Source of the DNA: a virus
Lineage: Duplodnaviria > Caudoviricetes
DNA: 53,777 bases
Strand: one strand, 5' to 3'
Virus record (IMG/VR): IMGVR_UViG_3300036851_000252
Coordinates: 1-53,777 of that record
The notes beneath the pieces are model-generated. The model saw only the letters and a list, made by a program, of their open reading frames with translations, ran no database searches and was not told the DNA's origin. The position numbers and the translations under genes are program-made. Of this stretch, positions 19,317 to 49,178 are shown piece by piece. Positions within the stretch are counted from its first letter, which is position 1; every line of letters starts with the position of its first letter.

Positions 19317-19448
19317 ATGTTCGCGATATCACATCAATCATGGTTACCTCAGCCGGGCTCATGCCTCGGAGGGTTAGGTGCCGTATCGATGTTTGAACGT
19401 GATCGCAGCTATAGAACCCAAAGCCTTTCAGGAGGTACCACTTTTTAA
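19317..19448 (+). CDS. Putative 43-aa attenuator leader peptide
   Basis: AAGGA upstream; MFAISHQSWLPQPGSCLGGLGAVSMFERDRSYRTQSLSGGTTF*; its 3' end contains one antiterminator arm. Confidence 0.6.
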   Translation: MFAISHQSWLPQPGSCLGGLGAVSMFERDRSYRTQSLSGGTTF

Positions 19449-19516
19449 GGTACCAGATCTCAAAAAGAGATAAATTCTGAAAGGCTCATCCGAAAGGACT
19501 GAGCCTTTTTCGTTTT
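19422..19516 (+). promoter_or_regulatory. Antiterminator/terminator switch (attenuator) ahead of the tRNA array
   Basis: AGCCTTTCAG (19422-31) pairs with CTGAAAGGCT (19477-86), which overlaps the terminator AAAGGCTCA-tccgaaaggac-TGAGCCTTT plus U-tract. Confidence 0.7.
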
Positions 19517-19746
19517 CTGAGGTGTTGATTTATCGCAAGTGGCTGCAAGCCTAGCCCGAAAATCAAACACGGAACTTGTACACGACGTAGCACTCTGTAC
19601 ACTCACCACGCCGGTATTCCGATAAGGAGCGGCTGAAACAACGCAGGGACCGCGTTGCATATCACATGCAACGTTATTGCGCCCCGCTCAAAAGCAATCA
19701 ATCGTGTTACTCCCGATTGTGAAAGATAGGAGTAGATTTTTACTAT

Positions 19747-19824
19747 GTGGTTCGTGATGGAATTGGTAGACATCCCTGACTGTGAATCAGGCACTTGCGG
19801 GTTCGAACCCCGTCGATCCACCCA
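19747..19824 (+). tRNA. tRNA-His(GTG)
   Basis: G-1, CCTGA-CTGTGAA-TCAGG, GTTCGAAC, CCA. Confidence 0.92.
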
Positions 19825-19917
19825 AATTTAAGTTTTGTGACCAACGATGTGAGCAAGTAATAATAGTTTCTGATGTTATGACGTATACGCTTTATACACA
19901 CAACTAGGAGATGATTT

Positions 19918-20271
19918 ATGAAAGCGTATATCGATGGATTTGCAAATGAGCAGGATGTATTGGAGCAATTCAATGCACCTGAAGAGTACAAGAAGGCGAA
20001 GATCTTATTCGCATGGTATAACTATGAGGACTACTCAGGTTCAGCATTCGTGCTGTTCAAACATGGACGTAAGTTATACGAGGCAAACGGATCCCACTGC
20101 TCTTGCAATGGATTAGAAGAGTGTTGGTCACCTGAGGAAACTTCGGTGGAAGCATTACTGCACCGTCTGGACAACGGAACAGGATATTGGTATGGAATGC
20201 CAGAAAAGGAATTACGTAAGGTACTCAAGTCCTTGTCTAAGCGAAAGCAGACGACAAAACTAAATCCCTAG
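19918..20271 (+). CDS. Conserved phage hypothetical protein
   Basis: AGGAG RBS; YEDYSG...GSHCSCNGLE. Confidence 0.8.
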   Translation: MKAYIDGFANEQDVLEQFNAPEEYKKAKILFAWYNYEDYSGSAFVLFKHGRKLYEANGSHCSCNGLEECWSPEETSVEALLHRLDNGTGYWYGMPEKELRKVLKSLSKRKQTTKLNP

Positions 20272-20327
20272 CCTGCTAGGGTCGCTTAGAGGATCTCTAT
20301 GGAAGGAGACTCCTCTAAGATGATTCT

Positions 20328-20404
20328 CGGATATTAGCTCAGTCTGGTAGAGTACACCGTTTGGGGCGGTGGTGTCGAAGGTTCAAATCCTTCATGTCCG
20401 ACCA
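20328..20404 (+). tRNA. tRNA-Pro(TGG)
   Basis: CACCG-TTTGGGG-CGGTG; C1-G72, A73, CCA. Confidence 0.92.
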
Positions 20405-20622
20405 ATTTTTGAATAGCAAAGCCAGTAAGGAAAGATGCACCGAAAGCTTAGTCCAGAAGCCATTTCAAACTAAGCCACTGGACAATATGCAGAGCCGCAA
20501 ACTTTGTACGGCGATAATGAACATGTAGTGAAGATCGCCTATCGAATTGTAGGGAGCTGACCGTCTCGTAAGAGCGATAGTGCTACCGCGTCCGACTGAA
20601 CGAAATGAAAATCAGTCAGTAT

Positions 20623-20700
20623 CTGAGTGAGCGCCACGCGGAAGGCGAGCTGGTCTGGAGCCAGACTATCGTGCAGGTTCGAATCCTGTCACTCAGACCA
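20623..20700 (+). tRNA. Atypical tRNA-Pro(TGG)-like
   Basis: CTGAGTG/CACTCAG-ACCA; canonical T arm; loop TCTGGAG (C33); A8. Confidence 0.65.
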
Positions 20701-20931
20701 ATTTAACTGGAGAAGGGATCATGAGATCACACTGATTTGAGAGAAGAGATAAAGTTTCTGGAAGGTCGTTTGCAAGAAGTAGAACAAGAGATTGCCTCTG
20801 CTACCAAACCAAAACCATCACCTGGCTTGAAATTGTACTTAGACAATTTGAGAGCGAGATCAGAAATAATCATGTCAAGTGTTGACATACTCAAAGGATT
20901 TCATAGATCATATCCAAACTATAAATGATTT

Positions 20932-21007
20932 CGGCAAGTAGCTTAGTGCTTAAAGCACCATCCTTCGCGGATGGATATCGGTGGTTCAAATCCATCCTTG
21001 CCGACCA
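20932..21007 (+). tRNA. Atypical tRNA-like RNA (loop CTTCGCG, nominal TCG)
   Basis: Full cloverleaf plus CCA; D-loop lacks GG; C37. Confidence 0.65.
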
Positions 21008-21016
21008 AGATTCTAT

Positions 21017-21091
21017 CGACAAGTAGCTCATCGTCAGAGCGCTGCCCACCAGGGGCAGAGGTAGGTGGGTTAGTACCATCCTTGTCGACCA
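21017..21091 (+). tRNA. Atypical tRNA-like RNA (loop CACCAGG)
   Basis: Cloverleaf plus CCA; D-loop ATCGTCA, T-loop GTTAGTA, no U33. Confidence 0.6.
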
Positions 21092-21097
21092 AATTAC

Positions 21098-21172
21098 GGG
21101 CATGTAGCTCATCGTCAGAGCGCTCTCCTCACCCGAGAGAGGTAGGTAGTTCAATTCTATCCTTGCCCACCA
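21098..21172 (+). tRNA. Atypical tRNA-like RNA (loop CTCACCC, nominal Val CAC)
   Basis: Cloverleaf plus CCA; same D arm as the previous copy; C37. Confidence 0.65.
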
Positions 21173-21176
21173 AAGT

Positions 21177-21334
21177 TTTCCGTTGCGTAGAATAGAGATA
21201 CATCGTCTGTAAAACGAGTGCCCTAAAAAGGCGTGGGGGTTCGAGTCCCTCCTTCCCAACCAATTTATACTTTTTGGGAAGTGGCGAAATGGTAGACGCG
21301 CTAAAATATCCTCTAGTCGACTTTTTCTCGGAAA
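21177..21334 (+). ncRNA. Y-RNA-like element 1, enclosing a circularly permuted tRNA-Tyr(GTA)
   Basis: Shared scaffold; internal order is anticodon arm, V arm, T arm, acceptor 3'+ACCA, linker, acceptor 5', D arm. Confidence 0.8.
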
Positions 21335-21337
21335 TTT

Positions 21338-21423
21338 GGGAGTGCGGTGAAGTTGGAGAGTCACGGCAGACTGTAAATCTGTTGCCTCGCGCTGAATAGG
21401 TTCGAATCCTATCACTCCCACCA
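21338..21423 (+). tRNA. tRNA-Tyr(GTA)
   Basis: GCAGA-CTGTAAA-TCTGT, long V arm, CCA. Confidence 0.93.
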
Positions 21424-21563
21424 ATTCTGTTGCGTAGTGTAAAGATACTTCACATCAACTGCTTGCCGTGTGGTTCGAATCCCACTATCTCCACTAGACG
21501 GAGATATAGTTCAGAGGTAGAACAGCAGTCTCAAAAAGACTTTATGCGACTTTTTCTCAGAAT
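21424..21563 (+). ncRNA. Y-RNA-like element 2 (YrlA-like permuted tRNA domain)
   Basis: Scaffold; ACTGCT/AGCAGT stem, T arm GTTCGAATC, closed acceptor TATCTCC-actagac-GGAGATA, D arm GTTC-agaggta-GAAC. Confidence 0.82.
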
Positions 21564-21576
21564 GTTTTTAAGGTTT

Positions 21577-21710
21577 GATCTCGTTGCGTAGTTAAGAGGT
21601 ACTTCATTGGTTCAATTCCAATATTTCCCGCAGAGCACATTACTAAGTGTGCTGTATGGGAAATACGCCGACTGGTCGGCATATTCTTTTAACGACTTTA
21701 TCTCGAGACC
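21577..21710 (+). ncRNA. Y-RNA-like element 3 (permuted tRNA domain, extended acceptor hairpin)
   Basis: Scaffold; ATTGG-TTCAATT-CCAAT, ATTTCCC...GGGAAAT, GCCGA-ctgg-TCGGC. Confidence 0.8.
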
Positions 21711-21716
21711 ATGTTT

Positions 21717-21790
21717 TCATCCTGCTGCGTAGGCCCGAGTTACTTCAATTGAAATGAAAAAACACTCAATGCCGATTTTGTCTCAGGTGA
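21717..21790 (+). ncRNA. Y-RNA-like element 4 (short)
   Basis: CCTG-CTGCGTAG-GCCCGAG-TTACTTCA...CTCAATGC-CGAT-TTTGTCT-CAGG. Confidence 0.7.
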
Positions 21791-21793
21791 TTT

Positions 21794-21870
21794 GCGGGTA
21801 GATCGGTCAAGGGGCGACCAGCTGGCTTCCACCCAGATAATGCGGAGTTCGACTCTCCCTACCCGCTCCA
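21794..21870 (+). tRNA. tRNA-Gly(TCC)
   Basis: GCGGGTA/TACCCGC-TCCA; loop CTTCCAC. Confidence 0.85.
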
Positions 21871-21878
21871 AATTTTAT

Positions 21879-21955
21879 GCTCATGTCATCTAATGGCCTA
21901 GGACACCTGATTCTCAGTCAGGGAAATGAGGGTTCGACTCCCTTCATGAGCGCCA
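21879..21955 (+). tRNA. tRNA-Glu(CTC)
   Basis: CCTGA-TTCTCAG-TCAGG, CCA. Confidence 0.9.
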
Positions 21956-22039
21956 ATTTAATCGGATCAAGAGCGAGACAGCTTGAATAAGTTCTTGATC
22001 GTATCGTGCTGAGCTGGGATAGTGAACGACGATTACATT

Positions 22040-22124
22040 GCCCCTGTGGTGGAATTGGTAGACACAGCAGACTTAAAATCTGTCGCCTTCGGGCATATCG
22101 GTTCGATTCCGGTCAGGGGCACCA
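22040..22124 (+). tRNA. tRNA-Leu(TAA)
   Basis: GCAGA-CTTAAAA-TCTGT, V arm, CCA. Confidence 0.93.
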
Positions 22125-22195
22125 AGAATCTTGCTTAGACGTTGCGTGGTATGTTAAGTGGAAATGTCAGAGAGTTGAGAAACTCTTACGAATTT

Positions 22196-22318
22196 TGTTT
22201 TGTTGCGTAGATAACAGATACTTCGGTAAATTCGCTTCGGCGATAGTAGGTTCAAATCCTATAAACACGGTAGTGATACTGTGCTTGTAAATCCTGTTTT
22301 CAACTTTGTCTCAAAACA
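22196..22318 (+). ncRNA. Y-RNA-like element 5 (retains a T arm)
   Basis: TGTTTTG/CAAAACA closing stem; scaffold; TCGC-ttcg-GCGA, GTAGG-TTCAAAT-CCTAT. Confidence 0.75.
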
Positions 22319-22322
22319 TTAT

Positions 22323-22397
22323 TGATCCTTCGTCTAACTGGCAGGACGGGAGACTTTGAATCTCTTAACCTAGGTTCGAACCCTAGAGGATCAGCCA
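22323..22397 (+). tRNA. tRNA-Gln(TTG)
   Basis: GGAGA-CTTTGAA-TCTCT, CCA. Confidence 0.92.
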
Positions 22398-22404
22398 AGA
22401 TTTT

Positions 22405-22482
22405 GTCGGTGTACTTTAACTGGCCTAGAACACCTGGTTTTCACCCAGGGAAATGTGGGTTCGAATCCCATCACCGACGCCA
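22405..22482 (+). tRNA. tRNA-Glu(TTC)
   Basis: CCTGG-TTTTCAC-CCAGG, CCA. Confidence 0.9.
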
Positions 22483-22592
22483 AATTCGTGGGAGGCGATC
22501 AAGGAAGTATTGGAGGCGTCATCCTCTGAGAAAACCGCCCCCGAGCTATGACGGCTCTCGGTAGCAGCAAGCTACCAACGATTGATTACTGT

Positions 22593-22672
22593 AGCGGAGT
22601 AGAGTAGAAGCAAAAACTCGTCAGCCTCATAAGCTGAAGGTCGTGGTCGAGCATTTCCCACCTCCGCAACCA
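22593..22672 (+). tRNA. Atypical tRNA-Met(CAT), initiator-like acceptor
   Basis: 1-72 mismatch, TCAGC-CTCATAA-GCTGA, ACCA; D-loop lacks GG, enlarged non-canonical T-loop. Confidence 0.65.
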
Positions 22673-22824
22673 ATTTGAGGAGAACTGTTTGAATAACAAA
22701 GATCTGGATAAGAAGTTGATTGAAGAGCAGAAGCGCAGAGATCAACAGAAGTACTGGGAAGACCAGAAATTGGAACAAGCTCGTCGTGAACGAGATTCAC
22801 AATCAATTGCAGGATTAGTATAAT

Positions 22825-22898
22825 ACCCACGCCGAGGGATGTCGGCACTGTTCTTGCGAAGGATGGTTGCGTAAGCTCGACTCTTACCGTGGGTGCCA
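22825..22898 (+). tRNA. Atypical tRNA-Arg(GCG)-like
   Basis: ACCCACG/CGTGGGT-GCCA; loop TTGCGAA; T-loop CTCGACT; D stem abuts the acceptor stem. Confidence 0.6.
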
Positions 22899-23067
22899 AA
22901 TAAACAGTGTCATGAAGTGGGTAACCGTCCGATATCAAAACCGCAAGGTTGAGAGTGATTCCTTCTGCCCGTAAGGGAAGTGAAGTCGAGTAGACGGCCT
23001 ATATGGTCACTTAATCGAACAATGCCGGATGATACGCGTGTTTATCCACGTGCCGGCTCCAATTTAT

Positions 23068-23145
23068 GTCCACGTAGTTCAGATGGATTAGAATGCAACG
23101 CTACGAACGTTGAGGTCGGGGGTTCAAGTCCCTCCGTGGATGCCA
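23068..23145 (+). tRNA. tRNA-Arg(ACG)
   Basis: CAACG-CTACGAA-CGTTG, CCA. Confidence 0.93.
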
Positions 23146-23163
23146 AATAGTAAATACTGTAAT

Positions 23164-23649
23164 ATGAAGCTCATGGAATTAGCCAATAACAAAGAAATCA
23201 TTCTAGTCTCAGGCAACCTTTGCTCTGGTAAGGGTCATTATTGTTCAACTGCATACCCAGAGTATAGCCAGATCGGCGTTTCGTCGATCGTTAGAGCATT
23301 GGCTAAGATGAACACCCGCAGTGAGCTTTCTACAACGAAAGATTTTGATACACGAATTGCTCAAAGATTGATTCAATTCATCGAGAAAGATTCCTACAAC
23401 AAGATCATTGTTGATGGTATTCGTCAGCTTTCAATCATGCAAGCTCTGCAGAACCATTTTGGTGACCAAATTAAAGACATCATTTGGTTAGATGTTCCTG
23501 ATGATGTTGCCAAAGAACGTTTCGCCAATCGTGCAGCAGCAAAAGACGATCAAACGTACGACGATGCTCGTGCGGGTGATAGAAACTTGGGTATTGAAGA
23601 TGTTGAGAGCTACATTCGTGCTAATCATAAGGTAGTTCCCAACAGTTGA
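23164..23649 (+). CDS. P-loop NMP-kinase-like protein
   Basis: SGNLCSGKG, IIVDGIR, WLDVP...ERF; ATG 7 nt after TAAATA. Confidence 0.8.
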   Translation: MKLMELANNKEIILVSGNLCSGKGHYCSTAYPEYSQIGVSSIVRALAKMNTRSELSTTKDFDTRIAQRLIQFIEKDSYNKIIVDGIRQLSIMQALQNHFGDQIKDIIWLDVPDDVAKERFANRAAAKDDQTYDDARAGDRNLGIEDVESYIRANHKVVPNS

Positions 23650-23680
23650 TTATAGACCGGACCTTATTGATTATGGACCG

Positions 23681-24541
23681 ATGTATAATGCAGTATTAAA
23701 ATCACAAATAGATCAATCAGTCAATTTCGTAGAAGAGGAACTCGTAGGATTCATAGAATCACGATACGTTCGCAAGGTAGATGATTATTTCATTTGCTAC
23801 CTATCTTCACAAACCGGATGCAATCGTGGATGCAAGTTCTGTCACTTGACAGCAACCAAGCAAATGGCATTCATGGATTCAGATTACCAATCGTTTATTG
23901 GACAAGCATGTCAGGTGTTCCGCCATTACAAACGCGAGAAGCCAGCAAAGTATGTTCATTACAACTTCATGGCTCGTGGCGAAGCTTTAGCAAACAAATT
24001 CATCATCAATGAAGCAGACAAGATTTTGGGAACTCTTGGTGAGCTTGCAATCAAAGACAAGTTGTATCCAAAGTTCAACATCTCAACGATCATGCCAAAG
24101 ACATTGAAGGTATCTCTTACAGACATCTTCAAGATGGTCACACCAACGATGTACTATTCGTTGTATAGTGTTGACGATGCATTTAGAAAAGAATGGTTAC
24201 CAGCAGCAATGCCAGTAGACACAGCTCTGGATCTTTTGATGGATTATCAGTACATGTCAAAGAAGATCATTAAGATCCACTTTGCCTTCATCAAAGGCCA
24301 GAACGATTCAAAAGAAAGTTTGCTTGAAATGTGCAATGAACTCAATAAGAGAAAGTTGCTTTGTGAGTTCAACCTCGTTCGATACAATCCATTCTCACCA
24401 ATTCAAGGTGAAGAATCTGATGATCAAACGATCTATGAGAACTTGGAGTTGCTGAGAGAGCACTTCAAAGGCGATGTACAAATGATTCCACGTGTCGGAT
24501 TCGATGTAAAAGCATCGTGCGGCATGTTTGTTGATAAGTGA
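23681..24541 (+). CDS. RlmN/Cfr-family radical-SAM RNA methyltransferase
   Basis: CYLSSQTGCNRGCKFC, FMARGEAL, NLVRYNP, VKASCG. Confidence 0.88.
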   Translation: MYNAVLKSQIDQSVNFVEEELVGFIESRYVRKVDDYFICYLSSQTGCNRGCKFCHLTATKQMAFMDSDYQSFIGQACQVFRHYKREKPAKYVHYNFMARGEALANKFIINEADKILGTLGELAIKDKLYPKFNISTIMPKTLKVSLTDIFKMVTPTMYYSLYSVDDAFRKEWLPAAMPVDTALDLLMDYQYMSKKIIKIHFAFIKGQNDSKESLLEMCNELNKRKLLCEFNLVRYNPFSPIQGEESDDQTIYENLELLREHFKGDVQMIPRVGFDVKASCGMFVDK

Positions 24542-24544
24542 TAT

Positions 24545-24620
24545 GCAACCGTAGCTCAGCTGGTAGAGCACTGGCCTGAAGAGCCGGGTGTCACTGGTTC
24601 AATTCCAGTCGGTTGCACCA
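24545..24620 (+). tRNA. tRNA-Phe(GAA)
   Basis: CTGGC-CTGAAGA-GCCGG, CCA. Confidence 0.92.
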
Positions 24621-24627
24621 AGATTAT

Positions 24628-24703
24628 GCTGTCGTAGCTGAGATGGTATTAGCGCCACGCTGAAAACGTGGAGACGTTCGTTCGATACGACCCGACGGCA
24701 CCA
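24628..24703 (+). tRNA. tRNA-Phe(GAA), second copy
   Basis: CCACG-CTGAAAA-CGTGG, CCA. Confidence 0.88.
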
Positions 24704-24885
24704 AGAATTGAGAGTAGGCCTACCGCTATATAAATTTTACGGCTGTGGTAAAGCGGTGTAATGGGTTCAAAGTCCAACCTCATGTTTTGTATTCACCGAA
24801 GCCACGTCTCGAATGAGAGTGACAAACGCGAAGCTAGAATCAACTAGTGATAGTATAGGACGCTATACAGTACGGTGTTAATTTT

Positions 24886-24960
24886 TGGTCCTTCGTCTAA
24901 TTGGTAGGACGCAACGCTCTGAACGTTGTAACCTAGGTTCGAACCCTAGAGGACCAGCCA
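24886..24960 (+). tRNA. tRNA-Gln(CTG)
   Basis: CAACG-CTCTGAA-CGTTG, CCA. Confidence 0.92.
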
Positions 24961-25687
24961 AATTTGTCTCGTGTTGGCATAACGTGAGGAACTGGTATAC
25001 TTAGCACCGGCATCGAAAGATGGACGCGCGCCATGTGTGGGTTCGACTCCCATCGAGCAAATGAATTTTGATTGTGGTTAGACAAGCTCGGCCGAGCGAG
25101 TGAGATGGGTTCGAAACCGGATCGCTTTAGTGAGTAAGCAGAAAGCTTGTGCAATTCAAGCACCTTACGTCGTCTAATACTTCAGGAACAAGGATGGGCT
25201 CTTGTCACAATCAATTAAATTGTGTATTGTAGGGTAATGAGAACTCTACGGTATTTGATACTACACAAAGATACATCAGGATTCTGGTGGTTGTTTGGCA
25301 TCTATCGACCAACTTTCTTCATCCATCTAACACATGGATGGAACAATACACGAAAGGTTGGTTGTTATCGTGATGCACAAAGTTTAGTATTGAAGAAGTT
25401 TGATTTTGAATTTGTTGTCGGTTGGAAAGGATAAAGGACACAGAAGCCAGCATTGGTGTCCGCTCACCAGAAATGGTCTCTCCCGGTGGGAGGTAAGCAG
25501 CACTGGACTGATTGATTATAGTGCACGATATGCCCTTGAGAAGTGTCGGGAGACACTGCGAGAGAACTGCACACCCGCCGCACGCGAAGCATTTGCGGTC
25601 CTCACCTAGAGTGGGATAAATGTAAGAGGGTAGGGTTTTGGTGGGGGAGCTTGCTCCCCCATCGTTTTTATAGGATAATCACTTTTT

Positions 25688-25766
25688 GGCTCACGGGACT
25701 GCTTAGTGTGGTCGCTCGCCTGTCACGCGAGATAACAGATGGGAGCATAACCCATGTGGGTCGCCA
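25688..25766 (+). tRNA. Atypical tRNA-Asp(GTC)
   Basis: CTCGC-CTGTCAC-GCGAG, GCCA end; T-loop AGCATAA instead of TTCRANY. Confidence 0.7.
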
Positions 25767-25781
25767 AATTTGTAAGGAATA

Positions 25782-26054
25782 ATGATGTCGGCACCAAAAG
25801 TTAGACCACCTTGGATTGAATATCTGTTGTACGATATTCGTACCGATTCCGATCCAGCAATCAACAAATACATTGCATTGTTCGAGAAGGTGTTCGAGAA
25901 GCGAAAAGCAAATCAGTTAACGGAAGATCAAATCCGTGGAATCCTCACACCAATTAGAGATTTCATTGTAGAAGATGCTCGGGCAAAGCATCACGCCTAC
26001 AAATTGATCACGGCGACGATCGAATATATCATCGATCCAGAGAAGAAAATTTAA
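25782..26054 (+). CDS. Hypothetical protein
   Basis: TAAGGA RBS. Confidence 0.7.
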   Translation: MMSAPKVRPPWIEYLLYDIRTDSDPAINKYIALFEKVFEKRKANQLTEDQIRGILTPIRDFIVEDARAKHHAYKLITATIEYIIDPEKKI

Positions 26055-26058
26055 CCAA

Positions 26059-26133
26059 GCAGGTATAATTCAGTGGTAGAATGTCTCGTTGCCAACGAGA
26101 ATGTCGCGAGTTCGAGCCTCGCTACCTGCTCCA
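26059..26133 (+). tRNA. tRNA-Gly(GCC)
   Basis: TCTCG-TTGCCAA-CGAGA, TCCA. Confidence 0.92.
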
Positions 26134-26148
26134 ATTGAGATATGTACA

Positions 26149-26652
26149 ATGAGCAACGTATACAGAGGAACTGGCTATATCCAGTATGATCCTCATCGTG
26201 GAAGCATGAAAAGCCGCACACAAGGATGGTGCATTGTCAATGTCGATCGCGAATTGACACGCTATTATCGTTGGTGGCTCGATAAGGAGATCTTGAATCC
26301 ACTTGGCCTTCCAAAGGGAGGTCTCGATCAACCAGCTTGGGATGCACACATCTCAATCGTTCGCGGTGAGAGATTATATCCTGACAAGGAACATCTATGG
26401 AAGAAGTATCAGGGTAAGAAGGTTGATTTCTGGTACGAGCACCCCTTTTGGTACGATATCGGCCGTGATAATAAGCAGCCTGGATATTTTTTTACAGTTG
26501 ACGTACAGTCAGCAGACTTAATGAATATTCGCCTCGAGTTGGGGTTGAAGGCTGATTGGAATTTCCACTTGACGTTCGGCAGAACGTATCAGTACGCAAA
26601 GGATCCTAACTACGGCGCGACTTGGATGCAAAAAGAGGCAATGATCACATGA
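26149..26652 (+). CDS. 2H phosphoesterase-family protein
   Basis: Two H-x-S/T motifs: AHISIV and FHLTFG. Confidence 0.7.
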   Translation: MSNVYRGTGYIQYDPHRGSMKSRTQGWCIVNVDRELTRYYRWWLDKEILNPLGLPKGGLDQPAWDAHISIVRGERLYPDKEHLWKKYQGKKVDFWYEHPFWYDIGRDNKQPGYFFTVDVQSADLMNIRLELGLKADWNFHLTFGRTYQYAKDPNYGATWMQKEAMIT

Positions 26653-27095: not shown

Positions 27096-27096
27096 C

Positions 27097-40565: not shown

Positions 40566-40567
40566 AA

Positions 40568-41350: not shown

Positions 41351-41522
41351 ACAGTTATTTATCTGTTGATTTCCCCTTTTGTAATGATTTATATATACCC
41401 GTGCAATGCCTTCGGGATTGCTGGTGGAGGAAGACCGGCGTCAAAACCGGTCGTCCCTTTTACTAAACGGACGCCTGTATAGGGTCCATTTTACAATTCT
41501 TGCTTGCTTAAGGAGATACGGT

Positions 41523-42053: not shown

Positions 42054-42054
42054 T

Positions 42055-42088
42055 AAAAAGGGCGCTGGAAACAGCGCCCTTTTCTTTC
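42055..42088 (+). terminator. Intrinsic terminator
   Basis: AAAAAGGGCGCTG-gaaa-CAGCGCCCTTTTT. Confidence 0.85.
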
Positions 42089-42147
42089 GATTGGTAACCA
42101 TGTAGAATTCTTGTATAAGTACCCAATATCTATAAGGGTACACTACA

Positions 42148-43347
42148 ATGAAGAAAACATACATGAATATCAAAAGCAAGCTAATTGCAAAAATCAACAA
42201 CCTCTATCTTGCAATTAGAAATTACTTCGAACAGCGTTGGGTCAAGCGTCTCGTTCAAGAGCTAACATCAGACATTACAGACGATGCTGCTCGCAGAATT
42301 TACATACAGCTGCTGAACAATAACATCGAACAATTGAGAATTGATAGTTATGGTTCGACCACACATATCATTTCAAACCGTCGTGATCGAATTGCATTTT
42401 TTGCAAAGACCATCAAGAAGGCAATTGAAGTTACACTCCCAATAAGAGGGCTTGTTGGTATTCAACCAATGTCTGGTCCGGTCGGTCTTGTATATGCATT
42501 GCGCTATCGTGAAACAGATCCAACCAACGAATCACCTGTTAAGCACATGACATTGGATGTTATGAGTGAAGCAGTGGCTGCTGATACCCGTAATCTTCAA
42601 GCCTCATATACGATTGAGGCGATGCAAGACATGAAAACACTTCATGGCATTGATGTTGAAAAGGAACTATCAGACGCTCTTGGTATCGAATTCGGTATTG
42701 AAGCTCAAAATGAAATTCTCAAAGATGTAGTACAGTTGGCGGAGAAATCAGGAAATGTAGTTGAGTTGAAACCAAACAGAGTATTGTTTTTAGCTGAAGA
42801 TGCATTGCATATTGCACTTGCAAGAGTCGCAAATGAAATCGCTCGTAAGACACGACGCGGTACTGGCAATTTCATTGTAACAAGTCCTTTGGGTGTTACC
42901 ATACTGCAAACAACACGAGGTCCATGGCAATTCAGACCTGTGAAACAATCTGGCACCTATGTTGGTGGTGTAACCTATGTTGGTGACATTATTGGTGTCA
43001 CACTGGCAGCTGAGCAGGTAATATACAAGGTATATTCGTCACTTTCATCATTGTCCCTGTTTCCTGATAATGCAGGTGTTGATTTCTTAGTTGGATTCAA
43101 AGGTAACAACGGTGAAGTTGATTCTGGTTACTTTTGGGCACCATACATCACTGCAATGACGCGTGGTGTTATGGTAAATCCTAATACATTCCAACCACAG
43201 GTTGGTTTCTACACAAGATATGGTAAAGTATTCACAAAGCCTACTGAAGACCCTGCTTCAAAGGTTTCAGCAAACTATTATGGATTAGTTAAAGTAATTT
43301 CAACCGAATCATCGCAGGCTGAAGAGACTACGGTCAACCCAGCTTGA
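42148..43347 (+). CDS. T4 gp23/gp24-like capsid protein paralog
   Basis: GIQPMSGPVGLVYALR, YTIEAMQD, IARKTRRGTGNF, YFWAPY, TFQPQVGFYTRYG. Confidence 0.88.
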   Translation: MKKTYMNIKSKLIAKINNLYLAIRNYFEQRWVKRLVQELTSDITDDAARRIYIQLLNNNIEQLRIDSYGSTTHIISNRRDRIAFFAKTIKKAIEVTLPIRGLVGIQPMSGPVGLVYALRYRETDPTNESPVKHMTLDVMSEAVAADTRNLQASYTIEAMQDMKTLHGIDVEKELSDALGIEFGIEAQNEILKDVVQLAEKSGNVVELKPNRVLFLAEDALHIALARVANEIARKTRRGTGNFIVTSPLGVTILQTTRGPWQFRPVKQSGTYVGGVTYVGDIIGVTLAAEQVIYKVYSSLSSLSLFPDNAGVDFLVGFKGNNGEVDSGYFWAPYITAMTRGVMVNPNTFQPQVGFYTRYGKVFTKPTEDPASKVSANYYGLVKVISTESSQAEETTVNPA

Positions 43348-43651
43348 GGAAGTTCGCGACATGCCGGAGACCTGTAGGAGACGATTGTGCAAGCATTCAT
43401 TGATTTTCTAAATCATGGTCTAACGAAAGACGAACGTTTTGCGTTAGGCGTATGTTGCTTCTTAGTGATATACGCTATACTGTGGCATTTAGATAACCAA
43501 ATGAATAAGCACAATCGTCGTTAGTACTACTGATACGAGTAAGCGGCATGCAACACAAACAGACCATAGACGAAGTCTCAGTTAGATGGTCGGGTAGTGG
43601 CTTAGAGGAATGATGATTTAGAAACAGAATCGCGGCTATGAGTTGAATATT

Positions 43652-43984
43652 ATGGAAAGAAAATACAGAGGTTGTAAAATAGAGGCTTTGTTCGATCAGC
43701 CAAGAGGTTGGCGTGCTGCAAAGTGGTCTGAACTTGAATGTGGACAATCTATTGTTGTGGAATCTAAAGATGGATGTGTTCACACACATACGTGTTATCG
43801 AGCTCCCAAGCCAAAGAACATGTCACCGCTTCAGTACTACAAGAAGTACAAGGTAGTGCCTGATCGATATGAATATGTGCATAATGGACGGTATTACTGC
43901 AATCCAGCACATTGCTCGCAATCATGGAAGAACAAGAAGGAACGGGATAAGCATTTGAATGGTGCATACTCCCTGTTAGATTAA
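43652..43984 (+). CDS. Hypothetical protein
   Basis: ORF packed within the operon. Confidence 0.6.
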   Translation: MERKYRGCKIEALFDQPRGWRAAKWSELECGQSIVVESKDGCVHTHTCYRAPKPKNMSPLQYYKKYKVVPDRYEYVHNGRYYCNPAHCSQSWKNKKERDKHLNGAYSLLD

Positions 43985-43985
43985 T

Positions 43986-44222
43986 ATGAGAAAAATTGAA
44001 CTGGCAAGGGATGATCTGGGTGCAAAGGTGTTAGCCGATGGAAAGCCAATTACTATTGGTTGGACCAAAGAACTTATTGAAGATCTTGGTGGTGTGTGCA
44101 ACCTTGATGTTGGCTTAGAGATAGCTTCAGTAATGGAAGAAGTCATGAAGCAAAATACAGATCTCTCTGACGATGAACGGGCAGAAGTAATGCGCCAATT
44201 TTTGCATTTGGAGAAAGAGTAA
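43986..44222 (+). CDS. Small protein with a gp23-like segment
   Basis: WTKELIEDL....LDV..EI aligns without gaps to YTIEAMQDM....IDV..EL of the capsid paralog. Confidence 0.65.
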   Translation: MRKIELARDDLGAKVLADGKPITIGWTKELIEDLGGVCNLDVGLEIASVMEEVMKQNTDLSDDERAEVMRQFLHLEKE

Positions 44223-44413
44223 TGTGTGCAATTAGCGTAATACACGACTATGGTCGCAGCATTCCAGATACTGAGTGGAATCGCGAGTCACTTGAAGCAT
44301 TCAAGAAGCTCGTGGATGAAGCAAAAAAGTTCGATGAAGCAACAAAGCAACCACATTGTGAAGATCCAGAAAAGTTGAAGTGGGTTGAAGTGGTAGAGAG
44401 CAAACTTGAATGA
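44222..44413 (+). CDS. Hypothetical protein
   Basis: MCAIS...D..T.QPHCEDPEK. Confidence 0.65.
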   Translation: MCAISVIHDYGRSIPDTEWNRESLEAFKKLVDEAKKFDEATKQPHCEDPEKLKWVEVVESKLE

Positions 44414-44612
44414 ACAAGCCATGGATTGTGTTTGAAGTTCATCCATATGGAAAGGACAAAAACGACAAAGTCCATAGCAAGCATGAATTTGAAAGTGACG
44501 CTATTGATACAGCGTAGAAATTGAACAGCAACACTCAACCAGAAGGTCCGCAGTATATTGTTGCTCAACAACGCAACCGCGATAAATAACAGTTTAACAC
44601 AAGGAGACGACG

Positions 44613-45308
44613 ATGAAACTTAATATCGAAATCAGAGCCGCAGAAGGCGGAGACGATAGCAAGCTTTTCGTTGGCGACTTAGCAAGTGCGTACATCAGAA
44701 TGGCTAACAAAGCTGGCTGAAAGTGTACCGTTCTTGAGAAGAAGCCAAGCGAGAAAGGCTTCTTTCAAATAGTCCTTCAAATCGAAGGCAACAATCTACA
44801 ACAACTGCACCATGAAGCTGGTGGACACCGTATACAACGCGTGCCTCCAACAGAACGGCATGGACGTGTGCAAACAAGCACAGTTACTGTTGCTGTGATT
44901 GATCCAAACAAGAACGTAGAGCATCCAAGTTTGAAACGTGATGAAAACGATTTCAAACTTGAGTGGTACTCAGGTTCTGGTTCGGGTGGTCAACACAGAA
45001 ATAAACATCAGAACAGTTGTAGAATAACCCATATTCCAACAGGAGTAGTGAAAACCGCACAAACGAGAAATCGCCAGTCCAGTGAGAAAGAGGCAAGGCA
45101 ATCCTTGTTAACCCACTTGGATAGCATGTACCATCAAGCTAAGCGAACCACATTTGATTCAGACCGTAAGGGTCAAGTAGGGTCAGGCATGCGTGGAGAT
45201 AAGATCCGCACATACCGTTTCCAAGATGATCGTGTTGAAGACCATCAGACAGGAAGAGGAGCTTCGTGTAAGAAGGTAATGGGTGGCAATTTTGAGAATT
45301 TGTGGTAA
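44613..45308 (+). CDS. RF1-like peptide chain release factor lacking domain 1, in-frame TGA at 44718-44720 (readthrough or pseudogene)
   Basis: AAGGAG RBS; IEIRAAEGGDDS...AG*K...EAGGHRIQRVPPTE..GRVQTS, GSGGQHRNK, KIRTY, all in one frame. Confidence 0.85.
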
Positions 45309-45328
45309 TCAATGACGAGGATAAAAAT

Positions 45329-45559
45329 ATGCCGCGCAAATACGTATACACAGATCAGAAATCAGGCAAACAGTTGTTTGAAACAATTGTTGCCAACTAC
45401 GTGTCATCAGAAGATGTAGACAAGCAGATGTTTGAAAAGACAAAGCGTGATCCACGTTTGGATCCGTTCATCGAACGTAAAATCACTGTCGTTGGTGAGA
45501 CAGAAGTTAAACAAGGCGGTCGGTTCGACAAGAACAAGAAGACTAAAGGATTTGTATGA
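45329..45559 (+). CDS. Hypothetical protein
   Basis: GAGGA RBS. Confidence 0.65.
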   Translation: MPRKYVYTDQKSGKQLFETIVANYVSSEDVDKQMFEKTKRDPRLDPFIERKITVVGETEVKQGGRFDKNKKTKGFV

Positions 45560-45759
45560 AAGAAATTCCAATTTCAGCTGCAAAAGATATTGCTCACAAA
45601 TATGGCTATGATCAAATTGTAGTTATTGGTCGCAAGACTGGTGACAATGGTGGTGAACATGTCACAACGTACGGTGTAGATAAAGAGCACTGTGGCGTTG
45701 CTGCTCAGATTGGTGATTTTCTGAAATACAAAGTCATGGGATGGAAAAAGGAAAGCTAA
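45556..45759 (+). CDS. Hypothetical protein
   Basis: ATGA coupling. Confidence 0.65.
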   Translation: MKEIPISAAKDIAHKYGYDQIVVIGRKTGDNGGEHVTTYGVDKEHCGVAAQIGDFLKYKVMGWKKES

Positions 45760-46121
45760 TGTATATTTCACGTGCTCTTATAATCAAAACTCCTTGGACA
45801 GATCTTATCCTGAAGGGTGAGAAGACATGGGAGATCCGTGGCAGCAAAACAAATATTCGTGGTACGATCGGTATTATTGAATCAGGTACTGGTACGATCG
45901 TTGGAGCAGTAGATCTGATCGATTGTATCGGTCCATTGTCTGTTGAAGAGATGAATAAACACGGAAAGAAACATCAGCTAATAACACCAATGTACGCTGA
46001 CGAGATGCCATATCCTAAAACATATGCTTGGGTTGTTGACGGTCCCGTTAAGTTTAAGAAGCCCGTCCCGTATAACCATCCCATGGGCGCGGTGATCTGG
46101 GTTAATTTGGATAACACATGA
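45759..46121 (+). CDS. ASCH-domain protein
   Basis: PWTDLILKGEKTWEIR, YAWV. Confidence 0.88.
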   Translation: MYISRALIIKTPWTDLILKGEKTWEIRGSKTNIRGTIGIIESGTGTIVGAVDLIDCIGPLSVEEMNKHGKKHQLITPMYADEMPYPKTYAWVVDGPVKFKKPVPYNHPMGAVIWVNLDNT

Positions 46122-46354
46122 CTGAACCATCACATGATCTTGTTGGCCTAATGTTCGGTGGCACTAGCGATGAAGCTGAAGTAGTTCGGTGGTGCCGCAA
46201 TTGCGGCGCTGTTGTAATCGACCTTGAATATGATGGTCGTACCGCAGCAGGTGCCATCATGAAGATGCGTGTACCAACACTGACACAGGATACACACTGT
46301 CGTAGTCCAGATAAGTTGGAACATTACAGACAAACTGGAAAGAACCGTAAATAA
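46118..46354 (+). CDS. Hypothetical protein
   Basis: VVRWCRNCGAVV. Confidence 0.65.
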   Translation: MTEPSHDLVGLMFGGTSDEAEVVRWCRNCGAVVIDLEYDGRTAAGAIMKMRVPTLTQDTHCRSPDKLEHYRQTGKNRK

Positions 46355-46357
46355 TTT

Positions 46358-46430
46358 GCCCCTATAACTCAGTGGCCAGAGTACGTCGCTTCGAACGACG
46401 GAGTCGGGAGTTCAAGTCTCTCTAGGGGTG
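46358..46430 (+). tRNA. tRNA-Arg(TCG), CCA not encoded
   Basis: CGTCG-CTTCGAA-CGACG; canonical D and T arms. Confidence 0.88.
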
Positions 46431-46449
46431 CTAACAAGGAGAATGATAG

Positions 46450-46823: not shown

Positions 46824-47144
46824 ATGGCAACGAATATCAATCTTACATGGATTAACCCAACCAGCCGCATTAACAACGATCCGTTGAATCCATCAGAATT
46901 CACGACAACTATAGAACACATGGATCCAGGTGAAGGTAACTGGACTGTTATCGCATCAGATATCGACAGCAGTGTTACAGCATATGCATTTTTGAATGCT
47001 GCTACTGGACTTCACAAATTCCGCATATATGCGGTAGATATCAGTGATGTGCGTGTGAGTCATTTTGCTATGGTCAATGCTACAATTCATGAACCACGTC
47101 CATCATCAAGAGCCGCAGTAAGCGCGACAATTGTTACTACGTAA
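46824..47144 (+). CDS. Fibronectin-III-like small late protein
   Basis: LTWINP...FRIYAVD beta-sandwich pattern; TAAATA at 46765. Confidence 0.6.
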   Translation: MATNINLTWINPTSRINNDPLNPSEFTTTIEHMDPGEGNWTVIASDIDSSVTAYAFLNAATGLHKFRIYAVDISDVRVSHFAMVNATIHEPRPSSRAAVSATIVTT

Positions 47145-47158
47145 CCCTATTAAAATTG

Positions 47159-47186
47159 TTGCCATCTTAAACTAACCATATATACT
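47159..47186 (+). promoter_or_regulatory. Sigma70-like promoter for the Y-RNA-like/Ro60 unit
   Basis: TTGCCA-16nt-TATACT; predicted start coincides with element 6. Confidence 0.6.
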
Positions 47187-47191
47187 ATGGC

Positions 47192-47266
47192 TTGCTGTTG
47201 CGTAGGGAAGGGTTACTTCATACTTTTTGTATAAAACAAGCTCTCTTTTCGACTTTGACTCAGCAA
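47192..47266 (+). ncRNA. Y-RNA-like element 6 (short)
   Basis: TTGCTG-TTGCGTAG-GGAAGGG-TTACTTCA...CTCTTTT-CGAC-TTTGACT-CAGCAA. Confidence 0.8.
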
Positions 47267-47400
47267 CTTATTTTAGGCGCCGAAAGGCTAGGGAATTACA
47301 ACCCCGAATCAACCAAGTTGTAAGACTAGATGTGACGATCAACTGTGAAGTTCTGCAGTCAGAACGGAGTTGGTTACATCGAACGAATATACAAATATAC

Positions 47401-47482
47401 GTCCGTTGCGTAGTGAACAGATACTTCATATTAAAGCCTCACGGCTTTGCCAAAAAAGACTGTTTGCGAATTTGACTCGGCC
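47401..47482 (+). ncRNA. Y-RNA-like element 7 (short)
   Basis: GTCCG-TTGCGTAG-TGAACAG-ATACTTCA...CTGTTTG-CGAA-TTTGACT-CGGCC. Confidence 0.8.
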
Positions 47483-47580
47483 ATATATGAAAGAATTCTG
47501 TAGATGCACTCGCATCTCCGAACATGTCATATGCCTGTCATTGCATCGGTCGTAATAACCAAAGATGATAGGAGAACGAT

Positions 47581-49140
47581 ATGACAAAGTTGAATCAGAA
47601 GGGCGTATCGCGCCGCGCTACAGCACCAGTTGCAGTTAGCTACAATGGAAATCCACAGTTTGCACAGACAGAAGCTTTTGCTCTGTATGATCTTGTTGTG
47701 TCTCATTTCTTCGGAAAGGACACATTCTATGAATCAAACGATGAGCGCTTGAAGCGTCTTGAGACATTAGTTGCCGGCGTTGTTTCAACAGGCAACTTGC
47801 ACTTCATCGCAAACACAATTGTCAATGCTCGTCATGTGATGAACATGCGTTCTATGCCTCTTGTCCTTGCAGTACATTTTGCGAAGGCTCTTCGTGATCA
47901 GAACAAGCAGTACCCACACCTTCGTGAAGTCATTCGTGACGTAATCGGTCGTGCCGATCAGATCACTGATTTGTACGCTGTAGCTCTTGGTGTCTTCGGT
48001 TCGAAGAACAAGATTCCACTTGCTATCAAGCGTGGTGTTGCCGATGCGTTCAACAAGTTCAACGAGTACCAGTTCGCTAAGTACAACTCAAAGGCTGCTG
48101 TGAAGCTTAAGGACGTTCTTCGTATCGTCCACCCAAAGGGTTCAACTGAAGAGCAGGGTGCGTTGTTCAAGCGTATCATGACAGACACAATGGCTGTGGC
48201 TGACACGTGGGAAGCAAAGCTTTCACAGAACGGTCAGCTTGATGAGAAGGAAAAGAAGTCAAAGGCCGACCTTTGGGGCGATATGCTTGCAAAGGGCAAG
48301 GGGTTTGGTTACATGGCATTGCTTCGTAACCTTCGCAACATGTGGGAAGCTCCAATCACAGATGCAAACAAGGCAATCGTTTACGAGCGTCTTGCAGATC
48401 CAGCTGAAGTGAAGAAGAGCAAGCAGTTCCCATTCCGTTTCGTCAATGCAATGACAAACGTTGCTCAGTTTGGTGACTCGAAGTTGAAGCGTGCATTGTC
48501 TCGCGCCGTTGATGCCAGCCTTGGTAACTTGCCACAGCTTGGCAACGGTGTTTGGATCATCATCGACTGCTCAGGCAGCATGGGTGGTGAGCGTTTCGAG
48601 AACGCATCATTGTTTGCCGCAGCCCTTGCAAAGGCCAACGCTGATGCTAAGAACGTTGCAGTAACAATGTTCAGCGACAACGCTAAGCACGTTACGTTCA
48701 ATGGAGACAATCCTGTGTTGACGATTCAGGAAGGCTTCAAGAAGGAAATCTATGGTGGTGGCACCAACCTTCAGGCAGCTTTGGAATTGAAGAGCAAGCT
48801 TGGCTTTGAGCCAGACACTGTTATCGTGATCAGCGATATGCAGGTCAATGCATTGTCAGGCAGCCGCTATGGATCACGTGTAAACGTTGGTTCATTGTTC
48901 AAGTCAGGTACTGTCAAGGTTGCTATTAACGTAGCAGGCTATGCCAACACACCACTTACCGATCTTGATGGCTGGTATCAGTTGACGGGTTGGTCGGATC
49001 GTATCTTTGACTTCATCCCAGCAATGCGTGAGAAGCAGAGTGTCGTTCAGACATTGTCAACCCGTTATGAGGGTATCCCTAAGAGGGTAAAGACGGTTGA
49101 GGTCGAGGAAGTCGACGAAGTTGAAAAGGAAGCTGAATAA
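47581..49140 (+). CDS. rsr: Ro60/Rsr TROVE-domain RNA-binding protein with vWA domain
   Basis: DTFYE, KLKDVLRIVHPK, TWE, GYMALLRNLRN, SKQFPFRF, DCSGSM, GGTN, ISDMQ. Confidence 0.93.
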   Translation: MTKLNQKGVSRRATAPVAVSYNGNPQFAQTEAFALYDLVVSHFFGKDTFYESNDERLKRLETLVAGVVSTGNLHFIANTIVNARHVMNMRSMPLVLAVHFAKALRDQNKQYPHLREVIRDVIGRADQITDLYAVALGVFGSKNKIPLAIKRGVADAFNKFNEYQFAKYNSKAAVKLKDVLRIVHPKGSTEEQGALFKRIMTDTMAVADTWEAKLSQNGQLDEKEKKSKADLWGDMLAKGKGFGYMALLRNLRNMWEAPITDANKAIVYERLADPAEVKKSKQFPFRFVNAMTNVAQFGDSKLKRALSRAVDASLGNLPQLGNGVWIIIDCSGSMGGERFENASLFAAALAKANADAKNVAVTMFSDNAKHVTFNGDNPVLTIQEGFKKEIYGGGTNLQAALELKSKLGFEPDTVIVISDMQVNALSGSRYGSRVNVGSLFKSGTVKVAINVAGYANTPLTDLDGWYQLTGWSDRIFDFIPAMREKQSVVQTLSTRYEGIPKRVKTVEVEEVDEVEKEAE

Positions 49141-49150
49141 GCTGTAAACT

Positions 49151-49178
49151 AGGGGCCTGAAAAGGCCCCTTTTTATTG
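49151..49178 (+). terminator. Intrinsic terminator after Ro60
   Basis: AGGGGCCT-gaaa-AGGCCCCT-TTTT. Confidence 0.85.

Follow-up and report, generated by a model that had tools for sequence, protein, structure and literature searches.

Does the tRNA island of an uncultivated jumbo phage hold one integrated machine for rescuing translation and repairing RNA, or a set of genes with related uses that are not inherited together? The question is raised by the IMG/VR record IMGVR_UViG_3300036851_000252, whose 53,777 bases were taken whole as the window of this analysis. The record is classed as linear and is about 17% complete, and the whole genome of the phage is therefore probably larger than 300 kb. 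A preliminary description had joined the tRNA genes of the window, its Y-like RNAs, Ro60, RNA ligases, end-healing enzymes and a release factor interrupted by UGA in a single module. We lean towards the view that the island is a mosaic of genes for the upkeep of host translation, with at least two functional cores, and not one co-inherited machine. One core would be a Ro60 ribonucleoprotein and the other an RF1-like release factor that lacks domain 1; the invariant UGA in the gene of this factor is the most interesting element of the locus. What has been observed directly is which genes are present, that the Y-like RNAs form a family linked to Ro60, that the UGA is conserved, and what surrounds the release-factor gene.

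The open reading frame (ORF) of the release factor starts behind a good ribosome-binding site and holds a single in-frame TGA up to its end (Table 1). Its read-through product matches RF1 (prfA) with 215 bits over model positions 107-334 of 347, short of the equivalog cut-off of 400, and scores 122 bits against RF2 and 61.2 bits against PrfH (TIGR03072; cut-off of 166.65 not reached). Because the RF1 match starts at model position 107, domain 1 is absent. The product could be aligned to solved RF1 over residues 4-215, and the in-frame UGA falls on the Trp of a 'GW' in the solved RF1 structures. The interrupted gene announced in the preliminary description is thus present, and the gating itself is a putative property of it.

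The interruption is shared by the relatives of this factor. Of 253 relatives found, the best 80 (55-62% identity) were read, many of them on contigs of 320-520 kb; each has exactly one in-frame stop, which is always TGA and always at the same codon. In the 81 aligned sequences, the columns of the TGA have zero entropy, and nearby third codon positions have about 1.4 bits. Coding periodicity is kept in the same frame on both flanks (0.62/0.47/1.42 bits upstream and 1.06/0.80/1.39 bits downstream of the TGA), the PPT motif is retained in 79 of the 81 sequences, and GGQ in all 81. An in-frame ATG within 28 codons past the TGA occurs in only two of the 81. The UGA is followed by A in 59 sequences, by G in 16 and by C in five, and never by U. 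The closest GenBank match is 40% identical, with no near cultured relative. Four GenBank homologues from huge phages (L269-L272; 37-40% identical) all lack domain 1 and begin at the same point, each with one or two in-frame TGAs. These are uncultured huge phages with genomes of 630-735 kb; a TGA falls at an 'SI*L/I' position in three of them and at the GW position, as in the window, in one.

Could the gene be dead, or the stop be an assembly error, or could UGA be read as Trp throughout the phage? A lone in-frame stop is what would be expected of a pseudogene or of a code-4 genome. However, all 80 independent contigs share the stop without exception, whereas third positions close to it vary, and codon periodicity is seen on either side of it. 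TGA is also an ordinary stop in the window, where it terminates 23 of the 69 ORFs, and mean ORF length drops, rather than rises, when TGA is taken as sense. ORFs did not gain length when TGA or TAG was read as sense, whether in the window, in six of the complete relatives or in two regions from huge phages, and genome-wide recoding was rejected on these crude ORF statistics. We regard this whole group of explanations as very improbable. A putatively gated release factor is strongly supported by the alignments as a conserved core, that is, an RF1-like protein without domain 1 and with an invariant UGA at a Trp codon.

How might such a gate work? The activities of all products, the processing of the RNAs, the readthrough and the links to host defences are what we infer from these data. 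A full-length release factor would be made only if the UGA is read through, and the likeliest reader would be Trp-tRNA acting as a near-cognate, which would restore the ancestral Trp-36. The level of the factor would then track the balance between decoding by Trp-tRNA and termination by RF2. Since the factor is of the RF1 type, it would not control its own gate, whose setting would depend on RF2 and tRNA. The factor may release peptides from ribosomes under conditions that the phage creates or meets. It may act beside the 2H phosphoesterase, the HAD phosphatase, the kinase and the ATP-dependent ligases (Rnl1 and a small Rnl2-type enzyme), which would mend cut tRNA or rRNA, and Pth2 would recycle dropped peptidyl-tRNA. 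A tRNA-Trp(CCA) is present in every genome examined, with two copies in the window. As to other decoding genes, tmRNA was found in all six locally searched complete relatives (G001, G002, G005, G006, G009 and G010). Five of these six also have one or two tRNAs with a CUA anticodon (amber suppressors), yet crude ORF statistics show no recoding.

Two known systems invite comparison with this gene; here and below, statements on published systems refer to the accessible parts of the papers cited. The programmed frameshift of prfB (PMC12421855) likewise involves an in-frame UGA, invariant and specific for RF2, in the early part of a release-factor gene. Unlike prfB, the phage gene shows no change of frame and no slippery or Shine-Dalgarno-like motif, and the conserved protein stays in frame; whereas prfB regulates itself, the phage product is of the RF1 type, so that control would lie with RF2 and Trp-tRNA. 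For bacterial prfA, the accessible part of the prfB survey found no case of regulated recoding (PMC12421855). PrfH of the RtcB2-PrfH module (PMC9304027) is, like the factor of the window, homologous to class-I release factors, has GGQ and lacks domain 1, and in both cases the release factor adjoins enzymes of an RNA-repair type. The window's factor differs from PrfH in being far nearer to RF1 (215 vs 61 bits) and in keeping the PxT codon-reading motif. Its partners also differ, being phosphatases, a kinase and ATP-dependent ligases, with no adjoining RtcB. To our knowledge, no UGA gate has been described for PrfH.

Many tRNAs, tmRNA, suppressor tRNAs and release factors are likewise found in huge phages (PMC7162821) and in recoded phages (bioRxiv 10.1101/2021.08.26.457843). 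Unlike the phages with 'code-change modules' (bioRxiv 10.1101/2021.08.26.457843), those of this analysis appear to use the standard code. The accessible text of these two papers, tables excluded, mentions no domain-1-less release factor and no in-frame UGA in one, and no description of a gated phage release factor was found in the literature searched, supplementary tables excluded.

The company that the release factor keeps was tallied within ±8 kb, on + strand ORFs, at 81 loci in 47 lineages; many flanks are short, so the counts are lower bounds. A CX5R PTPase-type phosphatase is found in at least 25 of the 47 lineages (all 52 members have the motif), and an unknown protein of 76 amino acids (aa) in at least 23. 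A calcineurin-like metallophosphatase, always together with the PTPase, occurs in at least 17 lineages and an AAA_33 kinase in at least ten; Pth2, an HD_4 protein and a DUF2828+DUF7788 protein were each counted in at least seven. The last of these was considered as a stand-in for Ro60, which is not claimed on a BLASTP E value of only 0.06. At least one of five families (PTPase, metallophosphatase, kinase, DUF2828+DUF7788 and Pth2) accompanies the release factor in at least 30 of the 47 lineages. The commonest neighbour families of the relatives have no member in the window, which instead has HAD, ASCH and Ro60 near its release factor. The tally points to a recurring functional neighbourhood of changing and partly non-homologous genes, and to no conserved module. 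By analogy, the neighbourhood resembles the bacterial PrfH-RtcB pair for rescue and repair. It is possible, though doubtful, that a large clade of uncultivated jumbo phages encodes a domain-1-less RF1 that is switched by UGA readthrough. The gate would report, through the balance of RF2 and Trp-tRNA, how termination or decoding stands in infected cells, and would turn on a ribosome-release factor that works with ATP-dependent heal-and-seal enzymes and Pth2. Such a system would be a phage counterpart of the PrfH-RtcB pair, and no regulated recoding would have been known before in a gene of the RF1 type.

The second subject of the locus is Ro60, which is present as previously described; its TROVE domain was confirmed in a six-frame search, and its vWA domain bears DCSGS, i.e., the DxSxS motif of MIDAS. 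Homologues of Ro60 were found in 100 of 50,697 GenBank phage records. The motif TGCGTAG-N8-TAC occurs in the window in exactly seven copies, all on the + strand, a number that none of 100 shuffles reached (mean 1.34), which bears out the seven Y-like RNAs of the preliminary description. Copies 6 and 7 are placed 100-390 nucleotides (nt) upstream of Ro60 on the same strand, and the other five stand within the tRNA array, 0-6 nt from the flanking tRNAs. Outside the window, a 15-base form of the 5' motif matches 66 IMG/VR stretches (among the motif loci, L242 and L004 are one contig). By a rough estimate, 66 exact 15-base matches are about what chance would give for a collection of this size, and only the subset linked to Ro60 counts as evidence. 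This subset consists of 19 stretches that encode a Ro60 homologue in the few kb examined, some only 28% identical to that of the window. Their motifs lie upstream of Ro60 on the Ro60 strand in 25 of 25 cases, 24 of them at a distance of 79-1061 nt. A strict filter on the 3' motif retained five of the 66 loci; it was too narrow and was replaced by the count of co-occurrence with Ro60. This placement and the rarity of Ro60 in phages therefore strongly support, at the level of sequence, a real phage Y-RNA family tied to Ro60.

The Y-like RNAs follow a common plan of a terminal stem, an internal loop with GUUGCGUAG on its 5' side and CGNNUUUNNCUC on its 3' side, and an inner stem. In the terminal stem, a few bases before the 5' motif pair with bases just past the 3' motif CGNNUUUNNCUC; in the inner stem, the five variable bases following GCGUAG pair with those preceding the 3' motif. 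Covariation was tested on ten copies, seven from the window and three from L004, with partners swapped between copies in 5000 permutations. The terminal stem (P1) averaged -5.47 kcal/mol with its own partner and -0.71 kcal/mol with swapped ones (0 of 5000 permutations as good), and the inner stem (P2) -4.96 and -3.42 kcal/mol, respectively (19 of 5000). A T-arm-like hairpin was seen in four of the seven copies (1, 2, 3 and 5). The module of copy 2 aligns to the T-arm, the closed acceptor hairpin and the D-arm of Rfam YrlA (RF02553, positions 23-85; 24.7 bits against a gathering score of 69, for the tRNA-like module only), and the full-length YrlA match of copy 1 has merely 15.8 bits. In L004 one copy likewise follows a tRNA-Gly. 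Enzymes of tRNA processing may cut the array-borne copies from the tRNA precursor and so set their ends, and the Y-like RNAs would bind Ro60, tethering or gating it as known Y RNAs do. An ORF of 82 aa (47227-47475) overlaps copies 6 and 7 and is probably no gene.

Phages that encode Ro60 with Y-like RNAs upstream of it have been described before (PMC4201824; PMC12135203). As in the Rsr/YrlA systems, including the Ro60-Yrl pair of Thermus phage phiLo (PMC4201824; PMC12135203), the window has a TROVE+vWA protein, Y RNAs just upstream of it on the same strand, and a 5'-3' stem around a conserved internal loop. Some copies also hold the YrlA module of T-arm, closed acceptor hairpin and D-arm (PMC4201824; PMC12135203). 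Unlike YrlA, whose 5' motif is published as GNCGAAN0-1G (PMC4201824), the window has UGCGUAG in the loop; the published motif is missing from all seven copies, which read GUUGCGUAG, with CGUA instead of CGAA. Seven copies are found here, compared with one to a few in the known systems (PMC4201824; PMC12135203), and five of them lie 25 kb from Ro60 in the tRNA array, flush with tRNA ends. The window also lacks RtcB and RtcR, and no RtcB match was found in it, in agreement with what had been said of rtcB. The GUUGCGUAG motif was not found in G002, the nearest complete relative.

Besides these two subjects, the window encodes several enzymes of RNA repair and translation. Pth2, the YqeY-like protein, the ASCH-domain protein and Rnl1 were confirmed by strong family matches. 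The RlmN-like methylase is likewise present, with 64.9 bits against TIGR00048 (RlmN) over positions 79-342 of 355, well under the cut-off, a match to phrog_27142 at E = 2e-95 and a CNRGCKFC motif (CxxxCxxC). The second ligase, the 2H phosphoesterase, the HAD phosphatase and the P-loop kinase were also recovered, on the weaker ground of motifs and scores under cut-off. The small ligase has the KYDGS motif and matches the RNA ligases of phrog_548, and its Atlas model compares with the N-terminal domain of Rnl2 at a TM of 0.76. The 2H enzyme matches phrog_12204 (E = 4.9e-40) and has two HxS/T motifs, HISIV and HLTFG; for the mini-HAD protein there are Atlas leads only, to PNK 3'-phosphatase-type clusters at 0.91-0.94. 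For the 'CCA-like' nucleotidyltransferase, the GGxxRD...DxD motif stands in ORF 8571-9245, but the family assignment does not, with 11.5 bits for PF01743 against a cut-off of 23 and no Pfam hit. Another candidate for this gene, 16839-18134, was ruled out as a 431-aa acidic, low-complexity protein of no family.

In phage T4, Pnkp and Rnl1 repair tRNA cut by nucleases, Pnkp being a kinase fused to a DxDxT phosphatase. As in T4, a single phage here combines an Rnl1 that has the C-terminal domain of the T4 type with a HAD DxDxT phosphatase motif and a P-loop kinase. Unlike T4 Pnkp, the kinase and the HAD protein of the window are small proteins encoded by separate genes, 23 kb from each other; the window further encodes a 2H esterase and a second ligase, and its Rnl1 lies outside the tRNA island.

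Table 1. Features of the window (positions in the 53,777-base record) with the support or setting of each.
Feature	Position	Strand	Support or setting
Candidate minimal nucleotidyltransferase ('CCA-like'), weak	8571..9245	+	GGAIRD...DYD motif
Rnl1, T4-type RNA ligase 1	12538..13731	+	PF09511 78.1 bits, T4_Rnl1_C 65.7 bits
Attenuator-like leader before tRNA array	19243..19512	+	promoter-like site, ORF, three complementary 8-mers, terminator hairpin
Array of 31 tRNA genes	19748..46431	+	ARAGORN
Y-like RNA 1	21177..21334	+	tRNA-like module; between tRNA-Val and tRNA-Tyr, gaps of 4 and 3 nt
Y-like RNA 2	21424..21563	+	tRNA-like module; begins directly after tRNA-Tyr
Y-like RNA 3	21579..21708	+	T-arm-like hairpin; fold z = -3.98
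Y-like RNA 4	21721..21787	+	short form; 6 nt ahead of tRNA-Gly
Y-like RNA 5	22196..22318	+	T-arm-like hairpin; 4 nt ahead of tRNA-Gln; fold z = -2.67
P-loop kinase, candidate 5'-kinase	23164..23649	+	AAA_18/17/33, GNLCSGKG P-loop
RlmN/Cfr-like radical-SAM RNA methyltransferase without N-terminal domain	23681..24541	+	TIGR00048, phrog_27142
2H phosphoesterase	26089..26652	+	PF22547 2H-SAK, phrog_12204, HxS/T motifs
Pth2, peptidyl-tRNA hydrolase	29310..29777	+	PF01981 113.5 bits
YqeY-like protein	30639..31085	+	PF09424 78 bits
Small Rnl2-type RNA ligase, nucleotidyltransferase domain only, 206 aa	32760..33380	+	PF09414, KYDGS
Predicted phosphohydrolase	39552..40250	+	phrog_19425 E = 9.9e-33; no Pfam/NCBIfam match
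RF1-like release factor without domain 1	44613..45308	+	in-frame TGA at codon 36 (44718-44720)
ASCH-domain protein	45741..46121	+	PF04266 38.7 bits
Mini-HAD phosphatase, 105 aa	46450..46767	+	VDLDGTL motif
Y-like RNA 6	47192..47266	+	short form, upstream of Ro60
Y-like RNA 7	47403..47480	+	short form, 100 nt upstream of Ro60
Ro60 (TROVE + vWA)	47581..49140	+	PF05731 76.5 bits (cut-off 23), VWA_2 43.5 bits

The tRNA array is preceded by a leader that deserves separate mention. A promoter-like TTGTCA-17-TATGAT (19243-19271) is followed by a leader ORF of 43 codons (19317-19448). The 8-mer CTGAAAGG stands at 19297 and 19477 and its complement at 19424, and these are the only three copies in the whole window; the middle copy lies inside the leader ORF, and the third overlaps the 5' arm of the terminator. 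The nine leader codons preceding the middle 8-mer specify Glu, Arg, Asp, Arg, Ser, Tyr, Arg, Thr and Gln. A leader stretch of 254 nt folds far better than its shuffles (z = -3.99) and has a terminal hairpin with a U-tract at about 19480-19512. The elements of an attenuator, that is, leader ORF, terminator and mutually exclusive pairings, can all be seen in the sequence of the window alone, and an attenuator coupled to translation, placed shortly before the first tRNA (19748), is a plausible candidate reading of this geometry. In the array itself, 27 of the 31 tRNAs called by ARAGORN score above gathering in Rfam. Together with one extra tRNA-like match in Rfam (22593-22669, 37.4 bits) and the four tRNA-like modules within Y-like RNAs, they make the earlier figure of about 34 tRNA or tRNA-like genes a fair one. 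The tRNA-Ile call at 29007-29100 (anticodon TAT) is unusual for tRNA-Ile, with 94 nt, a long extra arm and an end without CCA. The stretch 21020-21093, which ARAGORN did not call, is a degenerate copy (76% identical) of the adjoining tRNA-Val (21098-21172).

Are these genes inherited together? Co-inheritance was followed in 11 complete or near-complete genomes with the release factor (G001-G011), where Ro60 is present in three, Rnl1 in four, RtcB in three, Pth2 in six and the PF09414 ligase in nine. Rnl1 occurs in all three Ro60-bearing genomes and in one of the eight without Ro60. Rnl1 (G002, G004, G005 and G009) and RtcB (G003, G006 and G007) never co-occur, and four of the 11 genomes have neither; the two may stand in for each other as sealing ligases in this clade of phages. 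By our own arithmetic on the coordinates, RtcB and the release-factor gene are over 100 kb apart in each of the three relatives with RtcB. Six complete relatives that were searched locally have 40-56 tRNAs per genome, and only G002 among them has homologues of the small ligase, the 2H enzyme and the HAD protein. In G002, Ro60 lies at 48 kb, 2H at 52, HAD at 57, the ligase at 61, a deoxyribosyltransferase-like gene at 63, Pth2 at 63 and the release factor at 66 kb. Ro60, 2H, HAD, small ligase, Pth2 and release factor are thereby held within about 18 kb (7% of the genome) at the edge of the tRNA island. In L004, whose Ro60 is 54% identical to that of the window, no release factor was found within 10 kb upstream of Ro60. 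The interpretation first given to the window therefore survives in part. The gene content fits translation upkeep and RNA repair, the pair of Ro60 and Y RNA is conserved, and G002 has its cluster, but the parts are not one co-inherited unit, and co-inheritance as tested across complete relatives largely fails.

If all parts nevertheless formed one co-regulated system against the tRNA-cutting nucleases of abortive infection, stalled ribosomes would be sensed by the leader and damage by Ro60 with the Y RNAs, lost tRNAs would be made good from the array, repair would fall to the ligases and healing enzymes, and recycling would complete the sequence. Such a system would agree with genes that lie on one strand in one array, with the attenuator geometry just before the tRNAs, with the cluster of six parts in G002 and with the healing-type enzymes that recur beside the release factor. 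The pattern of ligases also suits it, Rnl1 being found in three of three Ro60 genomes vs one of eight others and RtcB only where Rnl1 is absent. However, Ro60, Rnl1 and Pth2 are in only three, four and six of the 11 complete relatives, the small ligase, 2H and HAD homologues are in one of the six genomes searched locally, and the order and identity of the neighbours differ even in L004. Nor was a shared promoter motif found, TATAAATA, the T4 late-promoter motif, being seen twice against 2.4 expected. PADLOC gave no hits on ten window proteins, and none matched a defence-system or anti-defence family. We consider a system of this scope quite unlikely.

The opposite explanation is that there is no coupling at all, the tRNA islands of jumbo phages being permissive sites for unrelated accessory genes whose translation and RNA flavour merely mirrors what such phages commonly carry. 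Heavy gene turnover between relatives speaks for it, as does the presence in the island of thioredoxin, Hsp20, a capsid-protein paralogue, an HNH-like protein and many family-less ORFs. Huge phages, moreover, generally carry release factors, tmRNA and similar genes, according to the accessible part of PMC7162821. Chance assembly is nevertheless hard to square with a Y-RNA motif that in all 25 cases lies upstream of Ro60 and on its strand, with the same functional classes beside the release factor in 30 of 47 lineages by way of non-homologous proteins, and with six parts in 7% of the G002 genome. We therefore hold the absence of any coupling to be unlikely, and return to a mosaic with at least two cores as the reading that we prefer.

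Several observations weigh against this reading of the island as cores of rescue and repair. The whole gene set is not co-inherited across the relatives, and the immediate neighbours of the window's release factor are small ORFs of no known family. The phosphatases and the kinase beside the relatives' release factors could act on proteins and not on RNA. Because the RF1-type codon-reading motif is kept, the sequence of the release factor implies no PrfH-like role on damaged ribosomes. In the window, the small ligase scores 24.8 bits for PF09414 against a cut-off of 27, the 2H enzyme 22.5 bits for PF22547, under its cut-off, and the kinase 24-26 bits for AAA_18/17/33, also under cut-off, with weak adenylate-kinase matches. 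A sequence search of solved structures with the ligase, kinase, HAD and 2H proteins gave nothing significant. None of the window's Y-like RNAs reaches the Rfam gathering score, and no YrlA was found with Rfam (E <= 0.5) near the Ro60 of G002, G005 or G009. As for the gate, no tRNA(UCA) or opal suppressor was found in six complete relatives. A weakened (4-bp) anticodon stem in tRNA-Trp promotes UGA reading, according to the accessible part of PMC13092985. A UGA-reading tRNA-Trp of this kind was rejected as a general explanation, the stem mismatch being present in two of eight phage tRNA-Trp genes, namely that of G002 and the second copy of the window, and the other six being canonical.

The remaining content of the window is varied. 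GC content is 0.41-0.47 throughout, the + strand holds nearly all long ORFs, and a near-identity search of the region against GenBank phages found nothing close at the DNA level. The one sequencing run listed for the record is of DNA and may be its source. Just upstream of Rnl1 (9889-12241) are a FolE2-type GTP cyclohydrolase (176.9 bits) and an ADP-ribosylglycohydrolase (216.5 bits). Thioredoxin and Hsp20 genes with strong family matches lie inside the island, together with an HNH-like protein and many ORFs without a known family. A Gp23-type major-capsid-protein paralogue (42148-43347, 180.7 bits) and the Hsp20 gene (41406-42053) stand within the tRNA island, remote from all other structural genes of the window, and their homologues in relatives, about 31% identical, are elsewhere in the genome. 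The sole sizeable minus-strand gene of the island, 40568-41350, resembles at its C-terminus a PHROG of T7 gp0.7-type protein kinase (E = 4.6e-10, over only 30 residues). The 340-aa protein at 35731-36753 belongs to no family and has an Ala/Pro-rich, repetitive middle (repeated GCAGC-type codons).

Phage tRNA repair, Ro60/Y-RNA particles, ribosome repair by PrfH-RtcB and the recoding switch of prfB are each known, but separately. What makes them testable together in these phages is a stop that is invariant in at least 80 divergent contigs and found in four of four huge phages, a gene that repeatedly lies beside end-healing enzymes, and Y RNAs that stand in a tRNA array. Gene callers that use the standard code will split or truncate this release-factor gene, and it is probably mis-annotated wherever it is present. 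If the proposed gate is real, it would be the first regulated recoding in an RF1-type gene, and it would give these viruses a new way to read the state of the translation machinery of their hosts.

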